In this document: in pieces, positions 22,766 through 40,948 of the stretch
How the letters are laid out: each line of letters opens with the position of its first letter
How positions within the stretch are numbered: the stretch's first letter is position 1
NCBI GenBank assembly: GCA_964487515.1
Contig: CAZARJ010000001.1
Coordinates: forward strand, 1,295-42,242
Length of the DNA: 40,948 nt
Source of the DNA: an uncultured Conexibacteraceae bacterium
Lineage (GTDB): Bacteria; Actinomycetota; Thermoleophilia; Solirubrobacterales; 70-9
Direction: 5' to 3'
The notes under the pieces: generated by a model
Database searches by the model: none
Seen by the model: only the letters and a program-made list of their open reading frames with translations
What the model was told of the DNA's origin: nothing
Made by a program: the position numbers and the translations under genes

Positions 22766-24733
<1,968 letters not shown>

Positions 24734-26143: not shown

Positions 26144-26176
26144 GGCTCATAGGAATACCACGTGGCGCGGAGCAAT

Positions 26177-26209
26177 CCCACATTTTCAATCTCAAAATGT
26201 GGGGTTTTT
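26177..26209 (+). terminator. AT-rich perfect hairpin plus T-run (intrinsic-terminator shape on the + strand) in the fic-vapC spacer
   Basis: CCCACATTTT (26177-86) pairs with AAAATGTGGG (26194-26203) around the loop caatctc, followed by GTTTTT (26204-09). No + strand gene is evident upstream, so the function is uncertain. Confidence 0.4.
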
Positions 26210-26254
26210 CTGGCCGATGAGGGATTCCTGCGAGGAGGATCGCCGCTTGCTCGC

Positions 26255-26662: not shown

Positions 26663-26889
26663 GGCCGCGGGCGCAGGGACTCGAGCAGCTCAGCCGAGCG
26701 GCCGCCGCGAGGTGCGACGTGCTCCTCGAGCAGTCCGCCTATCGCCACGGCGCGCTCGCCGCGGTGCCGCTGCAGCTCGGCCTCGGCAAACCCGCGAAGA
26801 ACCGCGCTGCGGCTGCTCCCGAGCCGCCGCGCCTCCGCGTCCACCCGCGCCAGCAGCTCATCCGGCATCGAGACCATCACCTTCGCCAA
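26659..26889 (-). CDS. vapB: Ribbon-helix-helix (CopG-type) antitoxin (VapB)
   Basis: 76 aa. VSMPDELLARVDAEARRLGSSRSAVLRGF is a typical RHH N-terminus. The listed start is a TTG; an alternative ATG lies at 26877. Confidence 0.75.
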   Translation of the reverse strand: MAKVMVSMPDELLARVDAEARRLGSSRSAVLRGFAEAELQRHRGERAVAIGGLLEEHVAPRGGRSAELLESLRPRP

Positions 26890-26912
26890 TCAAGTCACCT
26901 ACCTCCTCGTAG

Positions 26913-26927
26913 TATACCCCGGGTATA
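26913..26927. promoter_or_regulatory. 15-bp palindrome TATACCC-C-GGGTATA, candidate VapB operator
   Basis: Perfect 7+1+7 palindrome, 24-38 bp upstream of vapB. It overlaps a TATACT -10-like hexamer on the minus strand (26911-26916). Confidence 0.5.
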
Positions 26928-27019
26928 TCCTCGTCCGCCTTCTTCCACCCAAGAAGCCCTCTCACCGCTGCGCCGCCCCGGGGTGCGCATGAAATGGGGC
27001 GCGCCGGGGTACGCAGTCG

Positions 27020-27868
27020 GTGATGGACGTCAGCATCGGGCTGCCGAACGCCGTGCCGGGGACCACCGGCGGGCAGCTGACCGCGTTCGCGCGCCGCGCC
27101 GACGAGCGCGGCTTCAGGAGCCTCGGGACGATCGACCGCATCGTCTACCCGAACCTCGACCCGCTCACCGCGCTCGCGGCCGCCGCGGCGGTGACGGAGA
27201 GGATCGGCCTGATGACCTCGATCCTGATCGCGCCCCTGCACACCAACGCGACCCTGCTGGCCAAGCAGGCGCTGGCGCTGAACGCGATCTCCGGCGGCCG
27301 CCTCACGTTGGCGCTCGGGCTCGGCGGGCGCGAGGACGACTACGAGGCCTGCGGGCTGCCCACGGCGGGACGCGGCGAGCGTCTCGAGGAGATGCTCGAG
27401 CGGGTGCGCGAGGTCTGGGAGGGCGACGCGATCGGCCCGGGGCTCGCCGGGGCCCCGCGCGTGCTCCTCGGCGGTCACGCCGACGCCTCGTTCGAGCGCG
27501 CTGCGCGCTTCGGCGAGGGCTGGATCGCCGGCGGCTCGGCGCCCGATCAGTACGCCGGGATGGTCAAGCAGGCGCGCGCTGCCTGGGAGGCCGCGGGACG
27601 AGACGGAGCCCCACACACCGCGGCACTCGCCTACTTTGCCCTCGGCGAAGATGCTGAGGAGGACGCCCGCGCCTACCTCACCGACTACTACGGCTTCCTC
27701 GGCCCCGACGGCGCCGAGGCTGTCGCGGGCAGCGCCGCCAAGGATCCCGACACCGTGAGCGCCTACATCTCTGCCTTCGCCGACGCGGGCTGCGAGGAGC
27801 TGGTCTTCTTCCCCAGCTCCCCCGACCCCGTCCAGGCCGACCTCCTCGCCGACGCCGCTGGCCTGTAA
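27020..27868 (+). CDS. LLM-class (luciferase-like) F420-dependent oxidoreductase
   Basis: 282 aa. The pattern is typical of the LLM family: MDVSIGLP..., RGFRSLGTIDRIVYPN, and ISGGRLTLALGLGGREDDY. Start is GTG 27020 or ATG 27023. Confidence 0.85.
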   Translation: MMDVSIGLPNAVPGTTGGQLTAFARRADERGFRSLGTIDRIVYPNLDPLTALAAAAAVTERIGLMTSILIAPLHTNATLLAKQALALNAISGGRLTLALGLGGREDDYEACGLPTAGRGERLEEMLERVREVWEGDAIGPGLAGAPRVLLGGHADASFERAARFGEGWIAGGSAPDQYAGMVKQARAAWEAAGRDGAPHTAALAYFALGEDAEEDARAYLTDYYGFLGPDGAEAVAGSAAKDPDTVSAYISAFADAGCEELVFFPSSPDPVQADLLADAAGL

Positions 27869-27877
27869 GCGACCTTT

Positions 27878-27989
27878 TCCCGATCGTGAAAATCACCCCG
27901 GGGCGATCAGACAAGCCTTTGAATTTTTCCCGATCGGCTAAATTACGCTTGAATTTCGCTGCGGCAACGCCGTACACTCCCGATCGGGA
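27878..27989 (+). promoter_or_regulatory. hipBA control region: three TCCCGATCG boxes spaced exactly 50 bp apart, plus -35/-10
   Basis: The boxes are tcccgatcgtga (27878-89), tcccgatcggct (27928-39) and the perfect palindrome tcccgatcggga (27978-89). Promoter elements: TTGAAT (27949-54), an 18-nt spacer, then TACACT (27973-78). The hipB ATG is at 27992. Confidence 0.5.
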
Positions 27990-27991
27990 AA

Positions 27992-28213
27992 ATGGAAACG
28001 TCGAAGCGAGCATCGACTCCCGAGGAGATCGGAGCGCGGATACGCGCTCGCCGCCGCGAACTTAACCTCACTCAGACCGATCTGGCCGCGGCCGCGAACA
28101 CTTCGCTGCGCTTCGTCAGCGAGGTCGAGCGGGGCAAGCCGACCGCGCGCCTGAGCGGCGTCCTCAGGCTCCTCGATGCGCTCGGCATCACCTTGGAGCT
28201 CGGTACGCGGTGA
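27992..28213 (+). CDS. hipB: XRE-family HTH antitoxin (HipB-like)
   Basis: 73 aa. HTH segment IGARIRARRRELNLTQTDLAAAANTSLRFVSEVERGK. The stop overlaps the hipA GTG (GTGA). Confidence 0.8.
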   Translation: METSKRASTPEEIGARIRARRRELNLTQTDLAAAANTSLRFVSEVERGKPTARLSGVLRLLDALGITLELGTR

Positions 28214-29481
28214 ACGCGCTCGACGTATTCCTCCACGACGATCGGGTGGGAAGGCTGGAGCGCCACGCTCAGGCCACCCTCCAGTTCCAGTACGAAGCCG
28301 CCTGGGTCGAGGGCGGCGGCGCCCCCGTCTCGCTGAGCCTTCCGGTGCGGCGGGAGGCGTTCGCCGATTCGGAATGCCGCCCATTCTTCGCCGGGCTGCT
28401 GCCCGAGGGCAAGTTCCTGCGCACGATCGCCAGGGCGTTCGGCGTCTCGGCATCGAACCCTTTCGCGGTCCTGGGGGCGATCGGCGGTGAGTGCGCGGGC
28501 GCAATCTCGCTCGCGCCGGCCGACCATCCACCGCCACGAGATGGATCGCCGCGCTGGCTGGACGCGATCCAGCTCGCGAAGCTCGTCGACCAGCTCCCCG
28601 CAGACCCGATGATCGCCGACGACAGCGGCGAGGGGCTGCGCCTCTCGCTGGCCGGAGCCCAGGAGAAGCTCCCGGTCCTGTTCGCCGGCGAACGAATTGG
28701 GATCACCCGAGGGGACCCGCCCAGCACCCACATCATCAAGCTCCCCGACGGCTCTTACGCCGACCTGGTGGCCAACGAGGCGTTCTGCCTCGCCCTCGCA
28801 CGCGAATGCGGGTTGGAAGCGGTCGAGGCAACCGCGCAAGACGCCGGACTCGGGCTCTCGGACGATCCCGGCGATCGCTCGTTCCTGCTGGTGACGCGCT
28901 ATGACCGCGTCGACGGCCGGCGACTTCACCAGGAGGACCTCTGCCAGGCGCTCGGGATCTCCCCGGAGCTCAAGTACCAAGGGGACGGTGGCCCCTCGAT
29001 CGGAGACTGCGCGGCGCTCCTGCGGCGCGTCTCGTCGGCACCCGCCCCGGATGTGCTCGCGTTGCTCGATGCATTCCTCTTCAACTTCCTGATCGGCAAC
29101 CACGACGCGCACGCCAAGAACTACTCCCTGCTTCTCGAGGGGCCCCGCTCGCCGCGATTGGTCCCGCTCTACGACCTCGTCTCGACGGCCGTCTATCCGG
29201 GGCTTCATCGCAAGCTGGCGATGAAGCTGGGCGGCGAGAACCGTCCCGAGTACGTGCGCGGACGCCATCTCGCGCTCCTCGCCGCCGCCTTCGAGGTCAG
29301 CCCGGTCACGACCCGCGATCGCGCCGAGCAGCTCAGCGAGCGATTGGCCGACGCTCTGCCACGAGCCCGCGAAGACGGTGCGACTGCCTTCCGGGATCAA
29401 GCGAACCTCGAACGGATCCTGGCCGTCATCGAAAAGCGACGGAAGATCCTGTCCGCCGCCGCCGACGAGCTGCGGAACTAA
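28210..29481 (+). CDS. hipA: HipA-family serine/threonine kinase toxin
   Basis: 423 aa. It has the HipA N-terminal coupling domain (FFAGLLPEG, GECAGAISL), SLAGAQEKLPV, and the catalytic loop IGNHDAHAKNYSLL. Confidence 0.9.
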   Translation: MNALDVFLHDDRVGRLERHAQATLQFQYEAAWVEGGGAPVSLSLPVRREAFADSECRPFFAGLLPEGKFLRTIARAFGVSASNPFAVLGAIGGECAGAISLAPADHPPPRDGSPRWLDAIQLAKLVDQLPADPMIADDSGEGLRLSLAGAQEKLPVLFAGERIGITRGDPPSTHIIKLPDGSYADLVANEAFCLALARECGLEAVEATAQDAGLGLSDDPGDRSFLLVTRYDRVDGRRLHQEDLCQALGISPELKYQGDGGPSIGDCAALLRRVSSAPAPDVLALLDAFLFNFLIGNHDAHAKNYSLLLEGPRSPRLVPLYDLVSTAVYPGLHRKLAMKLGGENRPEYVRGRHLALLAAAFEVSPVTTRDRAEQLSERLADALPRAREDGATAFRDQANLERILAVIEKRRKILSAAADELRN

Positions 29482-29724: not shown

Positions 29725-30312
29725 TCAGCTCCGGACGCGGTAGCGCAGCTCGGTCATTCCGTTGCTGAACGGCGTGGCGCCGATCAGCTCAAGGGCGCCT
29801 GGAAGCGGGCGGTCGAAGAGGGGCTTGCCGGCTCCGAGGATCACCGGGACGACGGTCAGATGGAGCTCGTCGAGCAGGCCCGCGTCGGCGAACTGGGAGG
29901 CCACGCCGCCGCCGCCGACGACCCAGACAGCGCGATCACCGGCGGCGGCCGCCAGCTCGTCGTGCAGCTCGGCCACCGAGCCGTCCGCGACCCGCACGTC
30001 GACCCCCTCGCCGGATGGCCGGCGCTGCTCGCGCGAGCTCAGGACCCAGAAGGGCTTGCCCGCGTAAGGCCATTCCCCGCCGCCCGCGGCGTCGAGATGG
30101 TCGAGGACCCACTCGTAGGTCACAGAGCCGGAGACGAGCGCCCCGACCCCCTCGTAGAAGCGCTCGTAGGAGCCGCCCTCGCTCAGCGGATCCGCCGCGG
30201 CCTCCTCCGGGCCCGACCGCCCCTCGTAGCCGGTCAGCCAGTCGAGGCCGTCATCGGGGTCGGCGATATAGCCGTCCAGCGAGGCCGCGACGTAGTAGAT
30301 CGTCCGTGCCAC
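29725..30312 (-). CDS. Dihydrofolate-reductase-like / RibD C-terminal domain family protein
   Basis: 195 aa. MARTIYYVAASLDGYIADPDDGLDWL and VWVVGGGGVASQF are typical of RibD_C. GTG start. Confidence 0.85.
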   Translation of the reverse strand: MARTIYYVAASLDGYIADPDDGLDWLTGYEGRSGPEEAAADPLSEGGSYERFYEGVGALVSGSVTYEWVLDHLDAAGGGEWPYAGKPFWVLSSREQRRPSGEGVDVRVADGSVAELHDELAAAAGDRAVWVVGGGGVASQFADAGLLDELHLTVVPVILGAGKPLFDRPLPGALELIGATPFSNGMTELRYRVRS

Positions 30313-30389: not shown

Positions 30390-31760
30390 TCAGGCGGCCA
30401 GCTCGGCCGCCAGCTCGTTGAAGGCCTCGGTGTGGCGGTCGACCTGGGCCTCGGTGGTGGCGGGGCAGATCAGGGCCATCATGTGGAACGGGGTGAAGAG
30501 GATGCCGCGGTTGAGCATCGCCAGGTGCATGAGCTCGTCGAGCGGGCCCCCGATCACCTCGGCCGCCTCGGCGCCGTTGCGCGGTGGCTCGGCCGAGAAC
30601 ATGTACTCGACCCGGCAGCCGAGCCGGACGACGCTCCAGTTCAGGCCATGGCGCTCAATCCCCTCGCGGACCCCGGCCTCGTAGCGCTCGGCGAGGGCGA
30701 TCATGCGCTCATACGCCTCCTCGGTCAGGACCTCGCCCAGGGTCGCGCGGACGGCGGCGAGCTGCAGGGCGTTGCCGGCCAGGGTGCCGCCGACGCCGCC
30801 GACGTCGGCCGCGTCCCAGACGGTGCGCTCGATCACGCGCGCGGCGAGCTCGTCGCTGAGGCCGTAGGCGCCCGTGGGGATGCCGCCGGCGATCGGCTTG
30901 CCCATCGTCATCGCATCGGGCTCGAGGCCGTGCGCGGCCGTGTAGCCGCCGGGCCCGCAGCTCAGCGTGTGCGTCTCGTCGATGACCAGCAGAGCGCCCT
31001 GCTCGGTGCAGAGCCGCCGCAGCTCCTCGTGGTAGCCGGGGTCGGGCAGCACGATGCCGATGTTGGTCAGCGCCGGCTCGACCAGGACGCAGGCGACGTC
31101 GCCCGCCGCCAGCTCGCGCTCCAGCCCCTCGAGGTCGTTGATCTCGACCACGCGGGTCGTCTGTGCCGGGTCGACGGGCGGGCCGATGTTGCCGTAGCGG
31201 GGCACGGCCGTCAGCCCGTCGTCGCCGAGCTCGACCACCGTCTCGTCGGCGGAGCCGTGGTAGCAGTGGTTGTGGACGAGGATCTTCGGCCGCCCCGTCA
31301 CCTGCCGGCAGAGGCGGATCACGAAGCGGTTCGCGTCGGTCGCGGAGACGGTGAACTGCCAGTGGCGCAGGCCGAACCGGGTGGCCATCAGCTCCCCCAC
31401 CTCCGCTGCGTGCTCGGCGGGCAGCATCGTCGTGATCCCGCGCCCGAGCTGGCGGCCGATCGCGGCGGTGGTCGCCTCGGGCGAGTGCCCGCACATCGCG
31501 CCCGTGTCGCCCAAGCATAGATCAGCGTAGGAGATCCCATCGATGTCGACGACCTCGGCCCCGCGCGCCTCGCGCACGTAGACCGGGAAGCTGCCCGGCC
31601 AGCGCGTCATCCAGTTCATCGGCACGCCCGAGAGGAGGTCTTCCTCACTGCGCTGATGGAGCTCTCCGGAGCGCGGGTGGAGCCGCTCGAACTCCGCCTG
31701 CTCTCGCTCCAGAAGCTCCGCAATCCGCTCTGGACTGGGCGATTCAGCCGATTCTGACAT
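30390..31760 (-). CDS. Class III aminotransferase of the glutamate-1-semialdehyde-aminomutase-like subgroup
   Basis: Subgroup pattern: VDIDGISYADLCLGDTGAMCGH, VHNHCYHGS, LLVIDETHT, and the PLP-Lys motif MGKPIAGGIPTGAYG. I prefer ATG 31760 (MSESAE) over 31772 on SD spacing. Confidence 0.85.
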   Translation of the reverse strand: MSESAESPSPERIAELLEREQAEFERLHPRSGELHQRSEEDLLSGVPMNWMTRWPGSFPVYVREARGAEVVDIDGISYADLCLGDTGAMCGHSPEATTAAIGRQLGRGITTMLPAEHAAEVGELMATRFGLRHWQFTVSATDANRFVIRLCRQVTGRPKILVHNHCYHGSADETVVELGDDGLTAVPRYGNIGPPVDPAQTTRVVEINDLEGLERELAAGDVACVLVEPALTNIGIVLPDPGYHEELRRLCTEQGALLVIDETHTLSCGPGGYTAAHGLEPDAMTMGKPIAGGIPTGAYGLSDELAARVIERTVWDAADVGGVGGTLAGNALQLAAVRATLGEVLTEEAYERMIALAERYEAGVREGIERHGLNWSVVRLGCRVEYMFSAEPPRNGAEAAEVIGGPLDELMHLAMLNRGILFTPFHMMALICPATTEAQVDRHTEAFNELAAELAA

Positions 31761-31797
31761 TTGTGCCCTCATCCTCCTCTGGCTGTGCTATCGTCGA

Positions 31798-31810
31798 ATT
31801 GTGGAACAAT
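31798..31810. promoter_or_regulatory. GntR/FadR-type operator candidate ATTGT-GGA-ACAAT
   Basis: Matches the family consensus TnGTnnnACnA (TTGTGGAACAA). It lies in the ~40-bp divergent spacer and overlaps the annotated GTG start of the GntR gene. Confidence 0.45.
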
Positions 31811-32502
31811 CTAGCACTCCCAAGCAGGCCGACCCCCCCGAGATCCCGCTGCGCACCGTCTCCGTCGTGGACGCCGCCGCCGACGCCCTGCGGCAGATGA
31901 TCCTCGACGGCACCCTGGAGCCCGGCGAGCCGCTGCGCGAGGCCACCTACTCGAAGCGCCTCGGCATCGCCCGCCACACCTTCCGCGCCGCGACCCAGAT
32001 CCTGATCAACGAGGGCCTGCTGCGCCGCTCCCCCAACCGGGGCGTGCAGCTGACCACCTTCGACCGCGACGGGATCGTCGACATCTTCCGCTTCCGCACG
32101 GCGCTCGAGATCGAGGCAACCCGTCAGGTCACCGCCGAGGGCCTCCCGCTGCCCGAGTGCGAGCGCGCCGTCGACCTCTTCAACGGGCTCTCCCCCGGCG
32201 CCTCCTGGCGCGAGGTGGTCGACCTCGACATGGCATTTCACCGGGCGATCATCGACGCCACCGGAAGCGAGCGGATCTCCCGCGCCTACGCGGCCGTGCA
32301 GACCGAGATCCTGATCTGCATGGCGCGCCTGCGCCCCCACTACGACCACTCCGAGCAGGTCGCAGCCGAGCACCGTGAGCTGCTCGACGCGCTGCGCTCG
32401 GGCGACCCCGACCGGGTCGAGGAGCTCTTCCGGCTGCACCTCGACGAAGCGATGGAGAAGTTGACCAAGGCGCTGCAAGCGCGAGAGGAGGTGACCGCGT
32501 GA
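31801..32502 (+). CDS. GntR-family transcriptional regulator (FadR/FCD subfamily)
   Basis: wHTH segment (ALRQMILDGTLEPGEPLREATYSKRLGIARHTFRAATQILINEGLL) plus an all-helical FCD-like C-terminal domain. The start is uncertain (GTG 31801). The stop overlaps the enolase start (GTGA). Confidence 0.85.
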   Translation: MEQSSTPKQADPPEIPLRTVSVVDAAADALRQMILDGTLEPGEPLREATYSKRLGIARHTFRAATQILINEGLLRRSPNRGVQLTTFDRDGIVDIFRFRTALEIEATRQVTAEGLPLPECERAVDLFNGLSPGASWREVVDLDMAFHRAIIDATGSERISRAYAAVQTEILICMARLRPHYDHSEQVAAEHRELLDALRSGDPDRVEELFRLHLDEAMEKLTKALQAREEVTA

Positions 32503-33773
32503 GTGGTCTCGAGATCCATGCCCTGAGCGCCCGTGAGGTGCTCGACTGCCGTGGCCTGCCGACCGTCCAGGTGGACGTCGTGCTGGAGGGAGGGGCGCGC
32601 GGCCGCGCCGACGTGCCCTCGGGCCGCTCCACGGGCTCCAACGAGGCCTTCGAGCGCCGCGACGGCGGGGATCGCTTCGGCGGCTTCGGCGTGCGCGGCG
32701 CGGTCGATGCCGTCAACGGCGAGATCGCCGACGCCATGCGTGGCTTCGAGCTCACCTCGCAGCGCAACCTGGACGCGCGCCTGATCGAGCTCGACGGCAC
32801 CCCGAACAAGTCCCGGCTCGGCGCCAACGCGGTGCTCGGCGTCTCCCTCGCCGGCGCCCGCGCGGCCGCCGCCGCCCAGGGCCGCCCCCTCTACAGCCAC
32901 CTGAACGGCAACGGCCACGTCCTCCCGGTGCCGCTCGTGAACCTGATCAACGGCGGCAAGCACGCCTCCAACGATCTCGACTTCCAGGAGTTCATCGTCA
33001 TCCCGGTCGGCGCCAGCTCGATCCTCGAGGCGCTGCAGATCTCGACCGAGGTCAACCTGGCCCTGGCCCAGATCCTGCTCGAGCGCTACGGCAAGAGCGC
33101 CCTCAATACCGGCGACGAGGGCGGCTACGCGCCCGCTCTCTCCGACCCGCGCGAGGCGCTCGGGCTCCTGCACGAGGCGGTCGACGCCGCCGGCCACGCG
33201 GGGCGCTTCCGCTACGGGCTCGACTGCGCCGCCACCCACTACCACTCGAATGGCACCTACGAGCTGGCCGGTGAGACGCGCGACACGGCGGCGATGATCG
33301 AGCTCTACCAGGAGCTGATCCGCGACTTCGACGTGGTCACGATCGAGGACCCCCTCGACGAGGACGACTTCGAGGGCTTCGCGGAGCTCACCCGCAGCAG
33401 CGGGATCCAGATCGTCGGCGACGACCTGTTCACGACCAACCCGGTCCGGATCGCCCACGGCGTCGAGCTCGGGGCGGCCAACTCGCTGCTCTGGAAGGTG
33501 AACCAGATCGGCACCCTGACCGAGTCCCTGGACGCCGCCGAGCTCGCCCACCGCAGCTCCTACACGGTGGTCGTCTCCGAGCGCTCGGGCGAGACCGAGG
33601 ACCCGATCATCGCCGACCTCGCGGTGGCCCTGAACGCGGGCCAGATCAAGACCGGGGCGCCGGTGCGGGGCGAGCGCACGGCCAAGTACAACCGGCTGAT
33701 CGAGATCTCCGAGGAGCTCGGGCACGAGGCCAAGTATCCCGGCGACGTGTTCGCGGCACCGGTGGCCGCCTGA
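32499..33773 (+). CDS. Enolase-family protein (divergent enolase paralog)
   Basis: 424 aa. Enolase motifs are present: PSGRSTG, NGGKHA, FQEFIVIP, GDEGGYAP, LDCAA, TIEDPL, VGDDLFTTN, KVNQIGTLTES, and IKTG...AKYNRL. The usual SHRSGETED reads SERSGETED. Confidence 0.9.
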   Translation: MSGLEIHALSAREVLDCRGLPTVQVDVVLEGGARGRADVPSGRSTGSNEAFERRDGGDRFGGFGVRGAVDAVNGEIADAMRGFELTSQRNLDARLIELDGTPNKSRLGANAVLGVSLAGARAAAAAQGRPLYSHLNGNGHVLPVPLVNLINGGKHASNDLDFQEFIVIPVGASSILEALQISTEVNLALAQILLERYGKSALNTGDEGGYAPALSDPREALGLLHEAVDAAGHAGRFRYGLDCAATHYHSNGTYELAGETRDTAAMIELYQELIRDFDVVTIEDPLDEDDFEGFAELTRSSGIQIVGDDLFTTNPVRIAHGVELGAANSLLWKVNQIGTLTESLDAAELAHRSSYTVVVSERSGETEDPIIADLAVALNAGQIKTGAPVRGERTAKYNRLIEISEELGHEAKYPGDVFAAPVAA

Positions 33774-33774
33774 C

Positions 33775-35202
33775 ATGGACCCGGTCCTGGCGCAGCGCGA
33801 ACGCCGGGACGAGCCCGGCGCCGAGGAGGCCCTGAGGCCCGCGGCGATCCTGAATCGGGAGGCCCTGCTGGACCACGGCCTCCCGATCCCCCGGGCGATC
33901 GCCCTGCGCGTCGCGGCGGCCGGGCTCGCCGCCTGCGACCCCGGCCTCGCGGTCGAGCGCCTCGTGCGGCTCGAGGGCGACGAGCTGATCGTCGACGGTC
34001 GCCGCCACACGCTCCACCCGGACGGGCGCGTCGTCGTGCTCGGCTCGGGCAAGGCGACGCTGAAGATCGCGATCGCGCTGGAGCGGATCCTCGGCCCCCG
34101 CCTGCACGGCGGCACGGTGGTCGTGCGCCACAACGACGCGGCGACGGTGCTCGAGCGCATCGAGCTGCTCGAGGCCGCCCACCCGGTCCCCGACGAGCGC
34201 AGCGTCGCCGCCGCCCGCCGCCTGCTCGAGCAGGCCGAGGGGCTCGGCGAGCGCGATCTGGTGATCGCCTGCTTCACCGGCGGCAGCTCGGCGCTGACCA
34301 GCCTGCCCCCCGACGGCGTCACCCCCGCCGAGAAGGCCGACCTGCACCGGCTCCTGCTCGGCGCGGGCCTGCCGATCGCCGAGATGAACGCCGTCCGCAA
34401 GCACGTCTCGGCCTTCAAGGGCGGGCGCCTGGCGCTCGCGATCGCCCCCGCGCGGGTGATCAACCTCACCGTCTCCGACGCGGCGGGGGACATGCTCGAC
34501 GTGATCACCGATCCCACCGTCCCCGACCAGTCGACGGTCGAGCAGGCGATCGCGGTGCTGCGCGGCAACGACCTCTGGGACGAGGTCTCCGAGAGCATCC
34601 GCGCGCATCTCTCCGGGGCGGGACCGGCGGGCGCCGGCCTGGACGGCACCGACATCCAGACGATCCTGCTGGTCACCGGGGAGGCGGCCTGCTCGGCGAT
34701 GGCGGCCGAGGCCCGGGCGGCGGGCGCCGAGCCGGTCGTGATCTCGACCACCCTGGAGGAGGAGGCGCGCGCGGTGGGCACGATGCTCGCCAACCTGGCC
34801 GGGGAGAGCGCCTCCCGGGGGCGTCCCTTCGCGGGCCCGGCCGTGATGATCGGCTGCGGGGGCGAGAGCGCCGTGCGGCTCGGCCCGGAGGACGAGTTCG
34901 GGGTCGGGGGGCCGAACCAGGAGGCGGCCCTCGCGGCGGCGCACGAGCTGGCCGGCCGGGATGTCGCGGCGGTGTTCCTCGATACCGACGGCTCCGACGG
35001 AAGCACCGAGCTGGCCGGCGCGATCGGTGACGGGCTGACGCTCGAGCGCGCACGCGAGGCCGGCCTGGACCTGGCGACGGCGCTCGCCCGGCACCGCTCC
35101 GGGGAGACCGTACGCACGCTCGGCGACGGGATCCGCACCGGGCCCACGCACACGAACGTCAACGACCTGTTCGCGCTCGCGATCGGAGCGCCGCAGGGAT
35201 GA
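33775..35202 (+). CDS. Glycerate 2-kinase (DUF4147/MOFRL, TtuD-type)
   Basis: 475 aa. Family pattern: VVVLGSGKATLKIAIALE, MNAVRKHVSAFKGGRLA, and the C-terminal MOFRL region FLDTDGSDGSTELAGAI. Confidence 0.85.
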   Translation: MDPVLAQRERRDEPGAEEALRPAAILNREALLDHGLPIPRAIALRVAAAGLAACDPGLAVERLVRLEGDELIVDGRRHTLHPDGRVVVLGSGKATLKIAIALERILGPRLHGGTVVVRHNDAATVLERIELLEAAHPVPDERSVAAARRLLEQAEGLGERDLVIACFTGGSSALTSLPPDGVTPAEKADLHRLLLGAGLPIAEMNAVRKHVSAFKGGRLALAIAPARVINLTVSDAAGDMLDVITDPTVPDQSTVEQAIAVLRGNDLWDEVSESIRAHLSGAGPAGAGLDGTDIQTILLVTGEAACSAMAAEARAAGAEPVVISTTLEEEARAVGTMLANLAGESASRGRPFAGPAVMIGCGGESAVRLGPEDEFGVGGPNQEAALAAAHELAGRDVAAVFLDTDGSDGSTELAGAIGDGLTLERAREAGLDLATALARHRSGETVRTLGDGIRTGPTHTNVNDLFALAIGAPQG

Positions 35203-36389
35203 GCGAGGTGATGGCGATGCCGGCGAGGAGCGAGGAGATGCCGATGGGTGAGGCGCAGCCGATGATCGAGCTCGAGCGGGTGACGAAGCGCTTCGGCCCC
35301 GCGACCGCCGTCGACGACCTGTCGATGACGATCCGGCGCGGCGAGTTCTTCTCGATGCTCGGCCCGAGCGGCTGCGGGAAGACGACGACGCTGCGCATGA
35401 TCGCGGGCTTCGAGGAGCCGACGATGGGCCGGGTGATGCTCGACGGCGACGACGTGACCTTGACCTCGCCGCGGCACCGCAACGTCAACATGGTCTTTCA
35501 GGACTACGCCCTGTTCCCGCACATGACCGTGGCCGAGAACGTCGGCTTCGGGCTGAAGCTGAAGCGGGTGGCCCGCGCCGAGATGAGCGCGCGCATCGAG
35601 GAGATGCTGCGGATCGTGCGCCTGGAGGGGCTCGGCGAGCGCCGGCCCGCGGAGCTCTCGGGCGGGCAGCGGCAGCGCGTCGCCCTCGCCCGGGCGCTCG
35701 TCAACCGGCCCGCGGCGCTGCTGCTCGACGAGCCGCTCGGCGCCCTCGACCTGAAGCTGCGCCGCGAGATGCAGCTGGAGCTGAAGCGGATCCAGAAGAG
35801 CACCGAGACCACGTTCGTCTACGTCACCCACGACCAGGAGGAGGCCCTGACGATGTCGGACCGGATCGCCGTGATGGCGGATGGCCGCGTCGAGCAGCTG
35901 GCCGACCCCAAGACCCTCTACGAGCAGCCGCGGACGAGCTTCGTCGCCGACTTCATCGGCACCTCGAACGCGCTGCGGCTGTGCGTCGACCGACGCGAGG
36001 GCGAGCTGGCGATCATGGAGCCGGGCCCCGGCGTGCGGATCGTCGCCCTGTCCGCGGACTGCCGCATCGGCGAGCCGCTGCAGATCAGCGTCCGGCCGGA
36101 GAAGATCCGGATCGAGACGGGGGCGGGGACCGCGCCCGGCGACGCATCCCACTCGTCGGCCAGCGGCGTCGCCATCGAGCGGGTCTATCTGGGCTCCGTC
36201 TCGCAGACCGTGGTCGAGCTGGCGGGGGGCGAGCGGCTCGCCGTGCACGAGCTCAACGACGACCGCGCCACCGCGATCGCCCCCGGCGATCGGGTGACGC
36301 TGAGCTGGCCCGCCCGCCACAGCCTGCTGATCGCCGCCGAAGAGGGAGCGCCGCCGGACCCGGCGGCTGACAACGAGGAGGAGTCCTGA
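35199..36389 (+). CDS. ABC transporter ATP-binding protein, PotA type
   Basis: Walker A (GPSGCGKTT), ABC signature (LSGGQRQRVALARA), Walker B (LLLDEPLGALD) and a TOBE-like tail. ATGA overlap with the upstream stop. Confidence 0.9.
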   Translation: MSEVMAMPARSEEMPMGEAQPMIELERVTKRFGPATAVDDLSMTIRRGEFFSMLGPSGCGKTTTLRMIAGFEEPTMGRVMLDGDDVTLTSPRHRNVNMVFQDYALFPHMTVAENVGFGLKLKRVARAEMSARIEEMLRIVRLEGLGERRPAELSGGQRQRVALARALVNRPAALLLDEPLGALDLKLRREMQLELKRIQKSTETTFVYVTHDQEEALTMSDRIAVMADGRVEQLADPKTLYEQPRTSFVADFIGTSNALRLCVDRREGELAIMEPGPGVRIVALSADCRIGEPLQISVRPEKIRIETGAGTAPGDASHSSASGVAIERVYLGSVSQTVVELAGGERLAVHELNDDRATAIAPGDRVTLSWPARHSLLIAAEEGAPPDPAADNEEES

Positions 36390-37486
36390 TGCGCCCACGT
36401 TCGATAATCACGGTGCTGGCGGGCCTCGGCTGCGCGCTGCTGCTGGCCGCCTGCGGCTCGTCCGGCGAGGCGACCGCCGGGGCCGAGAACGCCGCTCCGC
36501 CACCCGCGGATCCGAAGGCGCCGGTCAGCGGCACGCTGAGCCTCTTCGCCTACCAGGACACGATCACGGACGCCCTGCTCGATCCGTTCCGGAAGGCGAA
36601 TCCGGACCTGGAGCTGGAGACGGCCGCCTTCGGATCCAACGAGGAGGCGGCGGCGAAGCTGGCGGGCGGCTTTCACGCCGACGTCGTCGAGGTCTGCCTC
36701 GACGAGATGAGCGCGCTGACCGATCGCAACCTCCTGCAGCCGCTCGACCCGGCCGGGATCACGGACTGGGACGAGCTCGTCTTCCGCGACTCCCCCGGCG
36801 TCCGCGACGGCCACGACGTGCTCGTCACCCCGCTCTCCGCCGGGCCGCAGGGGCTGATCTACGACGCCGGCGAGGTCGAGCCGGGCGCGATCGGCTCCTG
36901 GGACGACCTCTTCGACCCCGCCTACGCGGACCGCGTGGCGCTGGAGGGCGACTACGCCCTGCCGGCGATCGCCGAGACCGCCCTGGCGCTCGGCTTCGAC
37001 GACCCGATGAACCTCACGGCTGACCAGCTCGACCAGGTCAAGGAGAAGCTGATCTCCAGCCGCGATCAGTTCCGCTCGCTCTGGCGCTCCGACGCCGACG
37101 TGGTCAACCTGTTCAAGTCGGGCGAGGTCGTCCTGGCCGACGGCGGCCCGGGCCTCACCGAGCGGATCAGGCGCACCGGCGTCGACGCGCAGTGGGTAGC
37201 GCCCGCCGAGCGCCCGCTGTCGTGGGTCTGCGGGCTGGCGGTGACGCGCGACGCGGAGAACCTGGACGCCGCCTACAAGCTGATCAACTGGCAGGCCTCT
37301 CCCGAGGCGCAGGCGATCCGCGCCGAGGCCGGCTACGTCGTGACCAACCCCAAGGCGATCCCGCTGGTCCCGGAAGCGGACCGCAAGACCGCCGACCCGA
37401 AGTCGATCGAGAACGCGATCGCGGAGACCGAGCCCCCGGACTACAGGGACTGGGAGCGGGCCTTCCGCGAGTTTCAAGCCCAGTGA
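36389..37486 (+). CDS. ABC substrate-binding lipoprotein, PotD/PotF family (copy 1)
   Basis: 365 aa with lipobox LLAACGSS. Clearly paralogous to the next gene along its whole length. TGATG overlap with the ATPase stop. Confidence 0.9.
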   Translation: MRPRSIITVLAGLGCALLLAACGSSGEATAGAENAAPPPADPKAPVSGTLSLFAYQDTITDALLDPFRKANPDLELETAAFGSNEEAAAKLAGGFHADVVEVCLDEMSALTDRNLLQPLDPAGITDWDELVFRDSPGVRDGHDVLVTPLSAGPQGLIYDAGEVEPGAIGSWDDLFDPAYADRVALEGDYALPAIAETALALGFDDPMNLTADQLDQVKEKLISSRDQFRSLWRSDADVVNLFKSGEVVLADGGPGLTERIRRTGVDAQWVAPAERPLSWVCGLAVTRDAENLDAAYKLINWQASPEAQAIRAEAGYVVTNPKAIPLVPEADRKTADPKSIENAIAETEPPDYRDWERAFREFQAQ

Positions 37487-37674
37487 AGCGCCGGGAGCCG
37501 GAGGTGACCGTCGCGATGGGCATGACCACACAGAGGACCAAGAGGACAAAGAGGACACCCCAATGAGGAGGAGAGTGGACCATGAGACTAGGGAACGAGG
37601 CGCGCGAAAGCGGGCCGACGGGGAGGCTCGCCGGCTCCGCTGAGCTCCGGCCCGGGCCGAGGAGCACCGGGAAG

Positions 37675-38793
37675 ATGAAAGGTGCGCACACGGCGCGCCG
37701 GGCGGCGCTCATCGCCCTGAGCGTGCTGGCGGCCGCGGCGTTGCTCGTCGCCGGCTGCGGCGGCGACGGCGGCGAGGCCACGGCCGAGGCGGGCAATCTG
37801 GCGCCGCCGCCCCAGGATCCGGACGCGCCGGCTACCGGGACGCTGAGCTTCTTCGCCTACGGGGACACCGTGGTCGACGAGATGCTCGATCCGTTCCGGG
37901 AGGCGAACCCCGACCTGGACCTCGAGGTCGCGACCTTCAACTCCAACAAGGCCGCGGCGGCGAAGCTCGCGGGCGGGTTCGACGCCGACGTGGTGGAGGT
38001 CTGCACCGACGAGATGCAGCCGCTGCTGGCCCGCAACCTGCTCCAGCCGCTGGATCCGAAGGGGGTCACCGACTTCGACAAGCTCGCCTTCTCGGACTCC
38101 GACCAGGTGCGCGACGCGGACGGCAACATCCTGTTCGTGCCCGCCTCGGCCGGCCCCCAGGGGCTGATCGTCAACACCGACGAGGTCGATCCGAGCGAGG
38201 TCGGCTCCTGGGCGGACCTCTACGACGAGGCCTTCGCGGGCCGCGTCGCGCTGGAGGCGACGCCGCTGACCGCGCTCGCCCAGGCGGCCCTGGCGAACGG
38301 GATCGACGACCCGTTCAACATGACCGACGAGGAGATCACGCAGGCCAAGGACTACATCCTCGACCACCGCGACCAGATCCGGGCGTTCGCCGACTCCGAC
38401 GCCTCGATGGTCAACCTGTTCAAGTCGGGCGAGGTCGTGATCGCCGACGGCGGCCGCGGCACGGCGCAGGCGATGATCGACGACGGCGTCCCCGTGGAGT
38501 GGATCGCGCCCGAGGAAGGGGCCCTCTCCTGGGTCTGCGGGCTCGCGATCACCTCGAAGGCGGACAACATCGACGCGGCCTACAGGCTGCTCAACTACTA
38601 CGCCTCGCCCGAGGCGCAGGCGATCTCCGGCGACATGGGCTTCGTGGCCATGAACCCGGACGCCCTGCCGAAGGTGAGCAAGAAGTTCCAGAAGACGGCC
38701 GACCCGCGGAACCTCGAGAACGCGATTCCGCAGACCGAGCCTGACAACGCCTCCGCCTACGACCGGGCATGGCAGGAAATCCAGGCACAGTAG
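37675..38793 (+). CDS. ABC substrate-binding lipoprotein, PotD/PotF family (copy 2)
   Basis: Signal peptide and lipobox MKGAHTARRAALIALSVLAAAALLVAGCGG. The alternative upstream ATG 37582 has a strong GGAGGAG 8 nt upstream, so the start is uncertain. Confidence 0.85.
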   Translation: MKGAHTARRAALIALSVLAAAALLVAGCGGDGGEATAEAGNLAPPPQDPDAPATGTLSFFAYGDTVVDEMLDPFREANPDLDLEVATFNSNKAAAAKLAGGFDADVVEVCTDEMQPLLARNLLQPLDPKGVTDFDKLAFSDSDQVRDADGNILFVPASAGPQGLIVNTDEVDPSEVGSWADLYDEAFAGRVALEATPLTALAQAALANGIDDPFNMTDEEITQAKDYILDHRDQIRAFADSDASMVNLFKSGEVVIADGGRGTAQAMIDDGVPVEWIAPEEGALSWVCGLAITSKADNIDAAYRLLNYYASPEAQAISGDMGFVAMNPDALPKVSKKFQKTADPRNLENAIPQTEPDNASAYDRAWQEIQAQ

Positions 38794-39677
38794 TCGCGCC
38801 CGCGCGGCCGGCGGCACCGGTCGAGCGTCCCCTCGGACACCGCGTCCGCCAGCGGCTCCCCGGCCTCGCCGGGGGGCTGCTGGTGGCCTTCGTGATGGTC
38901 GTCCTGTTCGGCCCCGTGCTGATGCTGGCGCTGTTCTCGTTCAACGACTCGTCGATCATCTCGCTGCCCTGGGAGGGGTTCACGACCAAGTGGTATGACG
39001 AGGCGTGGGCGAACGGCCAGGCCCGCGACGCGGTCGTCAACTCGCTCGTCGTGGCGGCGATCGTGATGGTGCTCTCGGTCGTGCTCGGCACGCTCTGCGC
39101 CTGGGGGCTGACCCGGCTGCGCTTCCGGGGACGGGCCTTCGTCGCCGGCCTGAACGGCGCGGTGCTCGTCGTCCCCTGGCTGATCATCGGCGTCGCCGGG
39201 CTGATCTTCTTCAGCCAGCTCGAGGTCGCCCTGTCGCTGGAGACGATCGGCTTGATGCACCTGGTCGTCACCTTCCCGCTCGTCGTCGCGATCGTCTCCG
39301 CCGGGCTGGTCCGCTTCCAGCGCTCGCTCGAGGAGGCCGCGATCGACCTCGGCGCAACGCAGCGGCAGATGCTGCGCTACGTGGTCCTCCCCCAGATCGG
39401 GCCCTCGATCGCCGCCTCGGCGATCTTCTCCTTCGCCTGGTCGTTCAACAACTTCGAGATCTCGTTCTTCACCGGCGGCTTCGAGCAGACGTTCCCGGTC
39501 TGGGTCTTCTCGATCCTGCGCCAGTCCGAGAACCTGCCGATCGTCAACGCGGTCTCGACCGTGATCGCCGCGGCCCAGATCGTCGCCGTCTTCGGGGCCT
39601 GGCTGCTGATCAAGCGGCTGACCCGCAACGAGGGCGAGGACCGGGTCGCCGGGCTGCTCACCGGAGGCGCGCGCTGA
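38769..39677 (+). CDS. ABC transporter permease (PotC-like)
   Basis: 302 aa membrane protein with an EAA loop (EAAIDLGATQRQMLRYVVLP). The start overlaps the end of the binding-protein gene by 25 nt, so the start is moderately uncertain. Confidence 0.85.
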   Translation: MAGNPGTVVAPARPAAPVERPLGHRVRQRLPGLAGGLLVAFVMVVLFGPVLMLALFSFNDSSIISLPWEGFTTKWYDEAWANGQARDAVVNSLVVAAIVMVLSVVLGTLCAWGLTRLRFRGRAFVAGLNGAVLVVPWLIIGVAGLIFFSQLEVALSLETIGLMHLVVTFPLVVAIVSAGLVRFQRSLEEAAIDLGATQRQMLRYVVLPQIGPSIAASAIFSFAWSFNNFEISFFTGGFEQTFPVWVFSILRQSENLPIVNAVSTVIAAAQIVAVFGAWLLIKRLTRNEGEDRVAGLLTGGAR

Positions 39678-40615
39678 TGGAGGCGGCCACGAGCACCACG
39701 GCGATGCCCCCGGCCGGCGCGGGGGCGGGCGCCCCCGCCCCGGCTCACCACCGGCGCTCGCGCGGCCGGCGGCTGCTTCAGCCGCTCGCCTTCATGGGAA
39801 CGCCGACGGCGCTGCTCGTCGTCTTCTTCCTCGCCCCGATGCTGGTCATGCTCGGGGTCGCCCTGGACCGCGGCCTGCTCGACGGCGGCGTCGGCTTCAA
39901 CTTCACGCTGATCAACTTCATCGACGTCGTCACCGACCCGCTGTATCTGGACGTCGCCGTGACCACCTTCGAGATCGCGACGATGGCGATGCTCGCCCAG
40001 CTCATCGTCGCGGTGCCGCTCGCCTACGTGATCGCCTTCAAGGCGGGCCGCTGGCAGCTGCCGATCCTGCTCTTCCTGGTCCTCGCCGACGAGCTCAACC
40101 CGATGGTCCGGATCTACGCCTGGCGGATGCTGCTCGGCCGCGAGGGGCTGATCAACGACGCGCTCATGAGCATCGGGATCATCGACCAGCCGATCGACGC
40201 CCTGCTGTTCAGCCAGTTCGCGGTCACGGTCGTCCTGGCGACCGGCTACATCACCTACACCGTGATCCCGATCTACGGCGCGATGAAGGCGATCGACGCC
40301 AACGTCTTCGAGGCCGCGCGCGACCTCGGCGCGGGCTGGTGGACGACGACCCGGCGCGTGCTGCTGCCGCTGATCGCGCCCGGCATCTTCGTCGCCCTGC
40401 TGCTCGTCTACATCCCCCTGTTCACCGACTTCGCCAGCCCGGCGCTGGTCGGCGGCACGAGCGGCTACATGCTCGGCAACGTGGTCCAGGACCTGGTCCT
40501 GGAGTCGGGCGATCTGAACCGGGGCGCGGCGATGAGCATCGTGATGCTCGGGCTCTCGGCGCTGTTCGCGGTCGTCGCCTACAAGATGGCTCGATTCAAC
40601 CGGCTGGAGAGCTGA
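39677..40615 (+). CDS. ABC transporter permease (PotB-like)
   Basis: Start at MEAATST (ATG 39677, TGATG overlap). EAA loop EAARDLGAGWWTTTRRVLLP. The upstream part of listed ORF 39005.. is an open alternative frame of the previous gene. Confidence 0.85.
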   Translation: MEAATSTTAMPPAGAGAGAPAPAHHRRSRGRRLLQPLAFMGTPTALLVVFFLAPMLVMLGVALDRGLLDGGVGFNFTLINFIDVVTDPLYLDVAVTTFEIATMAMLAQLIVAVPLAYVIAFKAGRWQLPILLFLVLADELNPMVRIYAWRMLLGREGLINDALMSIGIIDQPIDALLFSQFAVTVVLATGYITYTVIPIYGAMKAIDANVFEAARDLGAGWWTTTRRVLLPLIAPGIFVALLLVYIPLFTDFASPALVGGTSGYMLGNVVQDLVLESGDLNRGAAMSIVMLGLSALFAVVAYKMARFNRLES

Positions 40616-40617
40616 GC

Positions 40618-40948
40618 GTGGGAACGGTGGGCTCCGCCGGCCGCGCGCCGGGCGCCGGCGAGGAAACCCGCACCGGCCGGACTCCCGGAACCGGCGGCAT
40701 GCCCGGGGTCTCCCGGACGCGAGGGACGCGAGGCTGGGACGCGGTGATCGTCGGCGGCGGGCACAACGGCCTCGTCGCCGGCTTCTACCTGGCGCGCGCC
40801 GGGCTGCGCACCCTGATCCTGGAGCGGCGCGAGCTCGTCGGCGGCTGCTGCGTGACCGAGGAGCTCGCCCCCGGCTTCCGGGCCTCGACCGGCGCCTACG
40901 TGATCAGCATGCTGCGCGAGCCGGTCTGGCGCGACATGCGCCTCGCCG
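40618..40948 (+). CDS. FAD/NAD(P)-dependent oxidoreductase, phytoene-desaturase (CrtI)-like; 3' end outside window
   Basis: My own translation of the open frame runs from GTG 40618 (or ATG 40699) to the window edge. It contains a dinucleotide-binding motif (WDAVIVGGGHNGLVAGFYLARAGLRTLILERRELVGGC). Not in the supplied ORF track because it has no stop. Confidence 0.75.
   Translation, partial: MGTVGSAGRAPGAGEETRTGRTPGTGGMPGVSRTRGTRGWDAVIVGGGHNGLVAGFYLARAGLRTLILERRELVGGCCVTEELAPGFRASTGAYVISMLREPVWRDMRLA

Follow-up and report, generated by a model that had tools for sequence, protein, structure and literature searches.

Gene content and organization of the locus

The DNA analyzed here (the window) is a stretch of 40,948 nucleotides, with a G+C content of approximately 70%, from an uncultured Conexibacteraceae bacterium of the order Solirubrobacterales (assembly GCA_964487515.1, contig CAZARJ010000001.1). 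The locus under study is its segment 30390-40948, in which genes for a GntR-type regulator, a variant enolase, a MOFRL-family kinase, an ATP-binding cassette (ABC) importer and a flavoprotein follow one another on one strand, with a class III aminotransferase gene in divergent orientation. Genes were called by translation of the open reading frames (ORFs) of the window and by Pfam and NCBIfam profile scans, and all genes named in a preliminary description of this DNA were recovered where it had placed them. The features of the locus are as follows.

30390-31772, minus strand: class III (pyridoxal phosphate-dependent) aminotransferase, PRK07046 subfamily (Pfam Aminotran_3; alternative start 31760)
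31797-31810, no strand: operator-like palindrome AATTGTGGAACAAT (T.GT.N3.AC.A pattern)
31801-32502, plus strand: GntR+FCD regulator (Pfam GntR and FCD; start GTG 31801, inside the operator-like palindrome, or GTG 31867)
32499-33773, plus strand: variant enolase (Pfam Enolase_N and Enolase_C)
33775-35202, plus strand: MOFRL-family kinase, class II glycerate 2-kinase type (Pfam DUF4147 and MOFRL)
35199-36389, plus strand: ABC importer ATPase, PotA/PhnT-like (Pfam ABC_tran and TOBE_2)
36389-37486, plus strand: substrate-binding lipoprotein SBP1 (Pfam SBP_bac_8/1/6; lipobox LAAC)
37582-38793, plus strand: substrate-binding lipoprotein SBP2 (Pfam SBP_bac_8/6/1/11; lipobox VAGC; likely start ATG 37675)
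38769-39677, plus strand: ABC permease, PotC-like (Pfam BPD_transp_1)
39677-40615, plus strand: ABC permease, PotB-like (Pfam BPD_transp_1)
40618 (GTG) or 40699 (ATG) to 40948, plus strand: N-terminus of a CrtI/CrtO-like flavin adenine dinucleotide (FAD) flavoprotein (Pfam NAD_binding_8 and Amino_oxidase), cut by the window end

Reading of the junctions agreed with the preliminary description, with stop and start codons overlapping at 32499 (GTGA, joining gntR to the enolase gene), at 35199 (ATGA) and at 36389 and 39677 (both TGATG). The enolase and kinase genes do not overlap, being separated by a single nucleotide (TGAcATG), and the gap between sbp1 and sbp2 is 95 nt to the longest ORF, or approximately 188 nt if sbp2 starts at the methionine at 37675, before the signal peptide. 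The divergent spacer, earlier given as approximately 40 bp, has this length only if the second methionine of the aminotransferase is taken as its start, and measures 28 bp between the longest ORFs. Only approximately 83-110 codons of the flavoprotein gene lie within the window. No Rfam match was obtained anywhere in the window, and the purine-rich sbp1-sbp2 spacer showed no significant fold (z = -1.06). Within this spacer, 3 1/3 tandem copies of a purine-rich 9-nt unit (ACAAAGAGG) are found at 37528-37557; in one relative (L002) just 14 nt separate the two binding-protein genes.

The enolase belongs to a separate clade with altered active-site residues

The enolase gene product matched Pfam Enolase_N and Enolase_C with 158.7 and 351.7 bits, respectively, and the TIGR01060 equivalog model with 514 bits (cut-off 300). 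It is approximately 50-55% identical to solved enolases, with the best match to 2PA6 (presumably the Methanocaldococcus enolase), which scored above the 7CKP group (which we take to be the Mycobacterium tuberculosis enolase), and public annotation labels its relatives as phosphopyruvate hydratase. At two positions the protein nevertheless departs from the canonical sequence: SERSGETED is read for canonical SHRSGETED, placing Glu361 at the position of yeast His373 (a residue that we take to lie next to the C3 hydroxyl group of the substrate), and PSGRSTG for canonical PSGASTG, placing Arg43 at that of yeast Ala38, beside the Mg-binding Ser39. Among its best 120 homologues, Glu was present in 120 and Arg in 119, as compared to His in 115 and Ala in 110 of 150 representatives of clusters formed at 50% identity.

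Further differences were found when 106 sequences with this Glu (Glu-variants) were set against 77 canonical enolases, the latter being defined by having Ala and His at the two positions. The Glu-variants carry Cys for the Ser of the DSRG motif (Cys17 in the window protein), a Ser that is 99% conserved in the canonical set, and Tyr239, His247 and Trp332 are likewise specific to them, Trp332 adjoining the catalytic Lys. Position 38 was Arg in 95, Lys in 3 and Leu in 6 of the Glu-variants, and Ala in none. The catalytic set (metal ligands, Lys345, Glu211, Glu168, Lys396, Arg374 and Ser375 in yeast numbering) was kept in 104-106 of the 106 sequences; in the window protein the metal ligands are D242, E283 and D308 (yeast D246, E295 and D320), the base K333 and the acid E207 (yeast K345 and E211), and the other residues E164, K384, R362 and S363 (yeast E168, K396, R374 and S375). 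An AlphaFold model of the protein had a mean predicted local distance difference test score of 75, with three active-site loops below 50.

In a neighbor-joining tree the 106 Glu-variants formed one clade, with other non-His enolase-like sequences as nearest neighbors and the canonical Ala/His enolases outside. No characterized member of this clade was found among the PDB matches or in the literature searched, and a search of plasmids for the Glu-variant returned only canonical enolases, at no more than 54% identity. Besides the Glu-variants, approximately 30 of the 150 cluster representatives are devoid of His373, with Ala at this position in 17 and Gly, Val, Leu or Pro in others, and these non-His representatives form tree groups of their own; the enolase family proper thus seems to hold several uncharacterized paralogue clades.

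Enolase and MOFRL kinase form a portable pair

The kinase encoded next to the enolase matched Pfam DUF4147 (224.6 bits) and MOFRL (92 bits), and its relatives in the PDB are 1X3L (E 3e-80) and 2B8N ('glycerate kinase, putative'; E 4e-63). It scored below the cut-offs of the archaeal glycerate 2-kinase equivalogs NF041176 (187.5 versus 550 bits) and NF040791 (108.9 versus 670 bits). Characterized MOFRL kinases all make 2-phosphoglycerate from D-glycerate, from which enolase then gives phosphoenolpyruvate (PEP) in the non-phosphorylative Entner-Doudoroff branch, the serine cycle and tartrate utilization (PMC2063504). By analogy, the window kinase would most simply carry out the same conversion of D-glycerate.

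The distribution of the variant was scanned in one genome per species with the motif S-E-R-S-G-E-T-E-D-x-x-I-A-D, which occurred in at least 119 loci, all of them in metagenome bins. Among the matches listed, to which the counts and carriers given here refer, 102 loci had sufficient sequence for judging the neighbor: 93 encode a MOFRL homologue immediately downstream on the same strand, 7 more encode one within 2 kb, and 2 have none. The pair spans at least seven phyla: carriers were found in Actinomycetota (Solirubrobacterales, other Thermoleophilia, Gaiellales, Nocardioides, Frankiaceae and Nanopelagicales), Chloroflexota (Anaerolineae, Dehalococcoidia and Chloroflexia), Bacillota (Syntrophomonadaceae and Clostridia), Thermodesulfobacteriota, Desulfuromonadales, 'Deltaproteobacteria', Bacteriovoracaceae, Acidobacteriota, Verrucomicrobiia, Arenicellales and Burkholderiaceae. 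The preliminary description had regarded the enolase as a paralogue dedicated to its operon, and the existence of a separate clade that travels with the MOFRL kinase across phyla bears this out as far as the gene not being an ordinary glycolytic one is concerned; by phylogeny and distribution, the window enolase is probably a paralogue.

It is, conversely, very doubtful that the enolase is the sole housekeeping copy, located by chance in this operon in Solirubrobacterales, even though it lies above the curated enolase cut-off, carries the phosphopyruvate hydratase annotation and is of a type very common in Solirubrobacterales metagenome bins. Variants from Nocardioides, Burkholderiaceae, Arenicellales, Acidobacteriota, Desulfuromonadales and Dehalococcoidia group with those of Solirubrobacterales and not with canonical enolases, residues that are invariant in the latter are replaced, and the gene is tied to that of the MOFRL kinase and, in many cases, to one for a GntR regulator. 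A glycolytic gene, moreover, would not typically follow the gene of a pathway-specific regulator and overlap it by 4 nt.

The genes upstream of the pair vary widely between groups. In delta-type bins the pair lies beside a TRAP transporter, a LarA-like racemase and a D-2-hydroxyacid dehydrogenase, in Dehalococcoidia beside a UxaA/GarD-type dehydratase, a PTE-family protein, an SDR protein and an epimerase, and in some Bacillota and Chloroflexota beside an aldehyde:ferredoxin oxidoreductase. Neighbors in Anaerolineae are a PydA-like reductase and a GntR regulator or, in two bins, an MtmB-like methyltransferase and a corrinoid protein, and those in Syntrophomonadaceae are a carbamoyltransferase, a carbamate kinase, an M20 peptidase and an amidohydrolase. 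The transporter is of the Dpp/Opp type in Nocardioides, in another Actinomycetota bin and in one from Verrucomicrobiia, where genes for the aminotransferase, the enolase, the kinase, the flavoprotein and a further class III aminotransferase are still grouped. The enolase-kinase pair is thus a portable, near-obligate two-gene module attached to different upstream pathways. Three of these foreign contexts (aldehyde oxidoreductase, 2-hydroxyacid dehydrogenase, and the sugar-acid dehydratase/lactonase set) are classical glycerate-forming settings and, together with the activity of the characterized MOFRL kinases, they make a cassette leading from glycerate through 2-phosphoglycerate to PEP the simplest reading of the pair.

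Genes for YgeW-like carbamoyltransferase, carbamate-kinase-like protein, M20 peptidase, amidohydrolase and PydA-like reductase surround the pair in three Syntrophomonadaceae loci (L028, L040 and L093) and six loci from Anaerolineae/Chloroflexia (L011, L026, L039, L073, L105 and L118). Fused forms were also encountered: a MOFRL-enolase-like fusion of 908-912 amino acids (P0185/P0278), present in several assemblies, has Ile at Glu211 and Leu at His373, and the enolase parts of such kinase fusions are more strongly altered than the Glu-variants. Two APH-kinase-enolase-like fusions (P0182 and P0190; 745-770 amino acids) have Gly or Ala at His373.

A possible but unlikely alternative is that the kinase and enolase act on another 3-substituted 2-hydroxypropanoate (isoserine, L-glycerate or 3-sulfolactate), the kinase phosphorylating its 2-hydroxyl group and the enolase eliminating ammonia, water or sulfite to give PEP, which would make the pair a new kinase-lyase route instead of a glycolytic paralogue. 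This would be in line with the Glu at His373, with the long side chain always found at Ala38, with the occurrence of Leu at the His159 equivalent in 43 of the 106 clade members, and with the clade-specific changes adjoining the catalytic Lys and one of the metal ligands. It would also suit the persistence of the pair nearly everywhere, in cells that as a rule possess an enolase already, the sister clades, which are likewise non-His enolase-like and in part fused to MOFRL or APH kinases, and the nitrogen-rich contexts (class III aminotransferases; YgeW/YqeA/YgeY/PydA-like urate-type genes in Syntrophomonadaceae and Anaerolineae; MtmB-like methyltransferases). On the other hand, the protein retains all residues that serve base catalysis, protonation of the leaving group and the binding of carboxylate, phosphate and metal, the score is well above the enolase equivalog cut-off, the nitrogen-free contexts (aldehyde:ferredoxin oxidoreductase, D-2-hydroxyacid dehydrogenase and sugar-acid dehydratase) point to glycerate, and full-text literature searches found no such activity. 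In the same vein, and with a similarly small probability, the Glu-variants may be a neofunctionalized lyase family that, working with the MOFRL kinase, converts such a compound, beyond the reach of ordinary enolase, to PEP by way of a 2-phospho intermediate or, as a milder version, an isozyme that resists a pathway inhibitor, phosphorylated tartronate semialdehyde, a compound that strongly inhibits enolase.

Conservation of the operon in relatives

The best 120 database relatives of the enolase are 77-100% identical to it, and where a source is named it is a metagenome bin of Solirubrobacterales, Actinomycetes or Actinomycetota. Queries for exact copies of the window's own proteins returned no recorded entry. 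Three long contigs, with enolases 80-88% identical, share the order gntR, eno, MOFRL kinase, ATPase, binding protein(s), two permeases and flavoprotein, and also carry nearby genes for class III aminotransferases, a Kbl/BioF-like enzyme, PhoX and a small cupin. Synteny was counted over the 47 loci in which the enolase is 70% identical or more, using for each junction only loci whose flanks allow judgment: gntR lies directly upstream of eno in 33 of 39 relatives (most others being ordered eno-gntR-kinase), the ABC ATPase gene follows the kinase gene in 26 of 29, and 18 of 29 have a divergent PRK07046 aminotransferase gene on the upstream side of gntR. Because the arrangement recurs in relatives with enolases 70-88% identical, it is not a product of chance. 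The gene set is accordingly kept in Solirubrobacterales relatives, as the preliminary description had suggested should be checked, and synteny and junctions together support its view of a single regulator-headed operon in showing a conserved, translationally coupled catabolic gene set.

Within a single Solirubrobacterales bin (MFD03602.bin.1.72), the contigs L020 and L088 both carry the gntR-eno-kinase region, with 91% nucleotide identity over 5.7 kb, a double copy that represents either strain heterogeneity/assembly redundancy or a recent duplication, with no evidence of paralogy. In two relatives (L001 and L002) an acetyl-CoA synthetase-type gene lies immediately downstream of the flavoprotein gene on the opposite strand; in the window, an acetyl-CoA synthetase gene is located at 22727-24733, approximately 8 kb upstream of the operon.

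The regulator and a predicted operator

The regulator (Pfam GntR 43.4 bits, FCD 79.2 bits) has the architecture of the FadR/FCD subfamily, with an N-terminal helix-turn-helix and a C-terminal FCD domain, and its best NCBIfam match, phnR_burk, was weak (82.7 bits versus a cut-off of 271). The palindrome AATTGTGGAACAAT at 31797-31810 is unique in the window, where 0.01 matches would be expected by chance, and includes TTGTGGAACAA, which fits the T.GT.N3.AC.A operator pattern of the FadR/GntR type. It overlaps the annotated gntR start and precedes the start of the divergent aminotransferase gene by 25-37 bp; given this position, one palindrome could control both directions. The core ATTGTGGAA is kept at the 5' end of gntR in approximately 33 related loci despite diverged flanking DNA, and the GntR protein is predicted to bind the palindrome as its operator. 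Near-identical palindromes are found in relatives before an aminotransferase-Kbl-like operon (position 4830 in L001 and 3350 in L002) and likewise before PhoX or binding-protein operons (position 7834 in L002, with ATTGTTcAACAAT, and 4316 in L003). Since they share the palindrome, the aminotransferase-Kbl-like and PhoX/binding-protein units look like parts of one regulon with the operon.

The importer and its binding proteins

The ATPase passed the cut-off of the potA subfamily model TIGR01187 (382.9 versus 355.6 bits) and fell below that of the PotA equivalog (409 versus 482 bits). The other components were below the NCBIfam cut-offs by wider distances, with 151.9 versus 348 bits for PotB, 152.5 versus 326 bits for PotC and, against a PotD cut-off of 582 bits, 75.2 bits for SBP2 and 41 bits for SBP1. 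The two binding proteins are tandem paralogues, 58% identical and both with a signal peptide and a lipobox, and the best solved relative of SBP2 is PotD, at an E value of only 1e-20. When SBP2 was aligned to PotD (1POT), the residues that we take to be the ligand contacts read W34Y, T35G, E36D, Y37T, S83C, Y85D, D168T, E171A, W229G, W255W and D257C, so that only W255, one of five aromatic positions, is unchanged, with E36, one of four acidic positions, still acidic as Asp and W34 still aromatic as Tyr. With most contact residues replaced, the preliminary description's step from PotD/PotF-like proteins to polyamine-type ligands is not supported, and a classical PotD identity was rejected. The positions aligned with Ser83 and Asp257 of PotD are Cys in SBP2 (motifs VEVC(T/L)DE and SWVCGLA), and both motifs are present in SBP1; judging from the alignment, a pair of thiols would face the binding cleft.

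It is accordingly highly improbable that the operon serves the uptake and catabolism of a polyamine (spermidine, putrescine or 1,3-diaminopropane), with the enolase and kinase as unrelated passengers. The potA subfamily score, PotB, PotC and PotD as best-named relatives, the Amino_oxidase signature of the flavoprotein and the several class III aminotransferases nearby would fit such a function, but the PotD contacts are mostly lost (D168T, E171A, D257C and W229G) and all Pot equivalog scores are below cut-off. In addition, enolase, kinase, flavoprotein and aminotransferase stay together with a Dpp/Opp-type transporter instead in other genomes, and overlapping stop and start codons tie the enolase and kinase genes to those of the regulator and ATPase.

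Use of a phosphorus-containing amine (an aminophosphonate or phospho-amine) through a PhnR/PhnSTUV/PbfA-like system is suggested by phnR_burk being the best NCBIfam match of the regulator, by matches of the ATPase, permeases and SBP2 to models of 2-aminoethylphosphonate transporters, by the PhoX phosphatase behind the same palindrome in relatives, and by a second type of aminotransferase that matches the PbfA model with 197-235 bits. All such matches are far below the curated cut-offs, however, PhoX is absent from the window, and no PhnW, PhnX, PhnA, C-P lyase or PalA was found in the window or in the relatives examined. As this explanation also leaves the kinase-enolase pair without a role, we consider it improbable.

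The aminotransferase and the flavoprotein

The divergent gene product scored 644.5 bits against the NCBIfam model PRK07046 ('transaminase'; cut-off 425) and 202 bits against HemL (TIGR00713; cut-off 527.3). It had been described as resembling glutamate-1-semialdehyde (GSA) aminomutase; a divergently transcribed class III aminotransferase is indeed present, but HemL (GSA 2,1-aminomutase) was rejected as its identity, the score being below the equivalog cut-off. The best solved relative is 5YKR ('probable aminotransferase'), for which a literature search by PDB code found no source paper, with beta-transaminases and GSA aminomutases more distant.

The flavoprotein was evaluated through a full-length orthologue of 540 amino acids (L003:16660-18282), which scored 140.8 versus 238.1 bits against TIGR02734 and 254.5 versus 1000 bits against CrtO. 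Its best solved relative is phytoene dehydrogenase 4DGK, a kinship at the level of fold only, and the identity of a carotenoid enzyme was rejected, with the orthologue below all carotenoid-enzyme cut-offs and the context wrong. The gene follows the permease genes in six relatives (L002, L003, L006, L063, L072 and L108), and directly follows the kinase gene in the Nocardioides and Verrucomicrobiia loci.

Proposed pathway

Taken together, we regard it as an evenly balanced proposition that the locus holds the portable glycerate to 2-phosphoglycerate to PEP cassette, joined here to an importer, aminotransferase(s) and a flavoprotein under GntR/FCD control, the whole operon being an inducible catabolic unit that belongs to a small GntR/FCD regulon in this uncultured soil bacterium of the Solirubrobacterales. 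In this pathway the GntR regulator would bind AATTGTGGAACAAT between the divergent genes until an effector releases both transcription units. The Pot/Phn-type ABC importer, a family assignment that the profiles establish, would take up a small nitrogen-containing compound by means of its two paralogous lipoproteins. The PRK07046-type aminotransferase and the CrtI-like flavoprotein may then remove or oxidize the nitrogen to yield a three-carbon 2-hydroxy acid, most simply D-glycerate, with a second class III aminotransferase, the Kbl-like enzyme, PhoX and the cupin presumably also taking part in relatives. The MOFRL kinase would phosphorylate the 2-hydroxyl group, and the dedicated variant enolase would eliminate water to form PEP, as family chemistry and comparative context suggest.

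What the importer takes up is probably a small amine or an amino acid from which a C3 hydroxy acid is formed. Isoserine or 2,3-diaminopropionate, or another beta-amino or vicinal amino/hydroxy acid, would fit the kinship of the PRK07046 enzyme to beta-transaminases, the BioA/BioF-like pairing of an aminotransferase with a Kbl-like enzyme in relatives, and the urate-type contexts of the pair elsewhere.

Several observations weigh against this pathway. The conserved core is devoid of a glycerate-forming enzyme (tartronate-semialdehyde or hydroxypyruvate reductase, or aldehyde dehydrogenase), and there would be no need for a dedicated enolase if the product of the kinase were simply D-2-phosphoglycerate. 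The window enolase does not have the invariant residues of its family at His373 and Ala38, and because its active site deviates from every characterized enolase, the conversion of 2-phosphoglycerate to PEP is itself a prediction from sequence. The changes extend to other members and relatives of the clade, in that the His159 equivalent replaced by Leu in many Glu-variants (though kept in the window protein, as His155) adds a further altered position, and the fusion P0185 has no equivalent of Glu211. Since the binding proteins are devoid of most PotD ligand residues, even an amine as ligand is deduced from the aminotransferases and the flavoprotein. Finally, metatranscriptome contigs (searched at 85% identity) matched only short conserved ABC and enolase segments. 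The route from import to PEP put forward in the preliminary description is thus upheld in part: the conserved operon, the enolase clade and the contexts of the C3 end-module agree with it. An amino-C3 nature of the imported compound and a polyamine-type ligand are not supported, and the conserved core encodes no glycerate-forming reductase or dehydrogenase.

Other features of the window

A second, separate amine-type system is located at 1-6347, comprising the 3' part of a class III aminotransferase gene (132-1070), an alanine dehydrogenase gene (1067-2155) and, on the minus strand, genes for a TOBE-type ABC ATPase (2302-3435), two permeases (3479-5214) and a binding protein (5247-6347). Its ATPase is 47% identical to that of the operon, and between its binding protein and SBP2 no similarity could be detected. 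A toxin-antitoxin-type cluster at 25067-29481, just upstream of the operon, encodes a Fic/DOC protein (25067-26143, minus strand), a PIN-domain protein (26255-26662, minus strand) and a HipA-like kinase (28210-29481, plus strand), with a luciferase-like monooxygenase gene (27020-27868) in its midst and a RibD_C protein gene (29725-30312, minus strand) after it; in relatives, genes for PhoX, cupin and aminotransferase occupy the position of this cluster. An ORF of 533 amino acids at 19749-21350, approximately twice the usual length of ThyX, has its best ThyX (Thy1) stretch at residues 362-499 only, and a second matched ThyX stretch that was not located.

Significance

To our knowledge, the enolase family in the strict sense, in distinction from the wider enolase superfamily, has been treated as isofunctional, and automatic annotation labels all Glu-variant genes 'phosphopyruvate hydratase'. 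The Glu-variant clade is locked to the MOFRL kinase across its phyla, in aminotransferase, purine-type, sugar-acid and TRAP-transporter contexts, and therefore represents either a widespread dedicated glycerate to PEP cassette that is now counted as glycolysis in reconstructions, or a new enzyme activity. If the neofunctionalized lyase or the resistant isozyme proved true, it would constitute an undescribed, widespread 'kinase-lyase' entry into central metabolism and the first functional split within the enolase family proper. The operon would also mark a regulated uptake route for a nitrogen compound in abundant, mostly uncultured soil Solirubrobacterales. Literature searches on an enolase paralogue with a MOFRL kinase, on L-glycerate or isoserine kinase and on His373 variants found nothing relevant, and the statement of the preliminary description that no described pathway matches held in so far as the literature searched contained neither the Glu-variant clade nor the enolase-MOFRL cassette. 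While the parts belong to known families at the fold or subfamily level, there is a real chance of a new activity.

Comparison with known systems

With canonical enolases (EC 4.2.1.11; 2PA6, 7CKP and yeast 1ONE) the window clade shares the two-domain fold, the metal ligands, the catalytic Lys/Glu pair and the carboxylate- and phosphate-binding residues. It differs in the replacement of His373 by Glu, of Ala38 by Arg (Lys or Leu in some) and of the DSRG Ser by Cys, in the Trp before the catalytic Lys, in its separate position in the tree and in coming with a kinase. An enolase-family protein recruited to another substrate is known from phosphinothricin biosynthesis, in which the carboxyphosphonoenolpyruvate-forming homologue acts on a 2-phospho(no)-glycerate analogue in a dedicated cluster; this parallel, one of function and gene context rather than of aligned sequences, differs from the window in being biosynthetic and without a MOFRL kinase.

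The importer resembles the PotABCD/PotFGHI and PhnSTUV systems in its TOBE-type ATPase, two permeases and cluster-D binding protein. Unlike these, it has two tandem binding proteins, in which the contact residues are mostly replaced and two conserved Cys stand at contact positions, and its equivalog scores are all below cut-off. The regulator shares its domains (helix-turn-helix and FCD) with FadR-subfamily GntR regulators (PdhR, LldR, GlcC and NanR), as well as a T.GT.N3.AC.A operator overlapping a divergent promoter region and its place as first gene of its own catabolic operon; in contrast to them, it matches no equivalog, and the regulon of its relatives includes aminotransferases, a Kbl-like enzyme and PhoX.

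The gene set around the pair in Syntrophomonadaceae resembles that of the recently described reductive urate pathway, the C3 product of which is 2,3-diaminopropionate. A close likeness in chemistry is found in the lower branch formed by class II glycerate 2-kinase and enolase (non-phosphorylative Entner-Doudoroff, serine cycle and tartrate pathways), where the same families act in the same reaction order, and in other phyla the pair adjoins enzymes of the glyceraldehyde or hydroxypyruvate type. In these pathways the enolase is the ordinary glycolytic enzyme, unlinked to the kinase gene, whereas the window clade, with its altered invariant residues, is genetically bound to the kinase and lies here within a transporter/aminotransferase operon.

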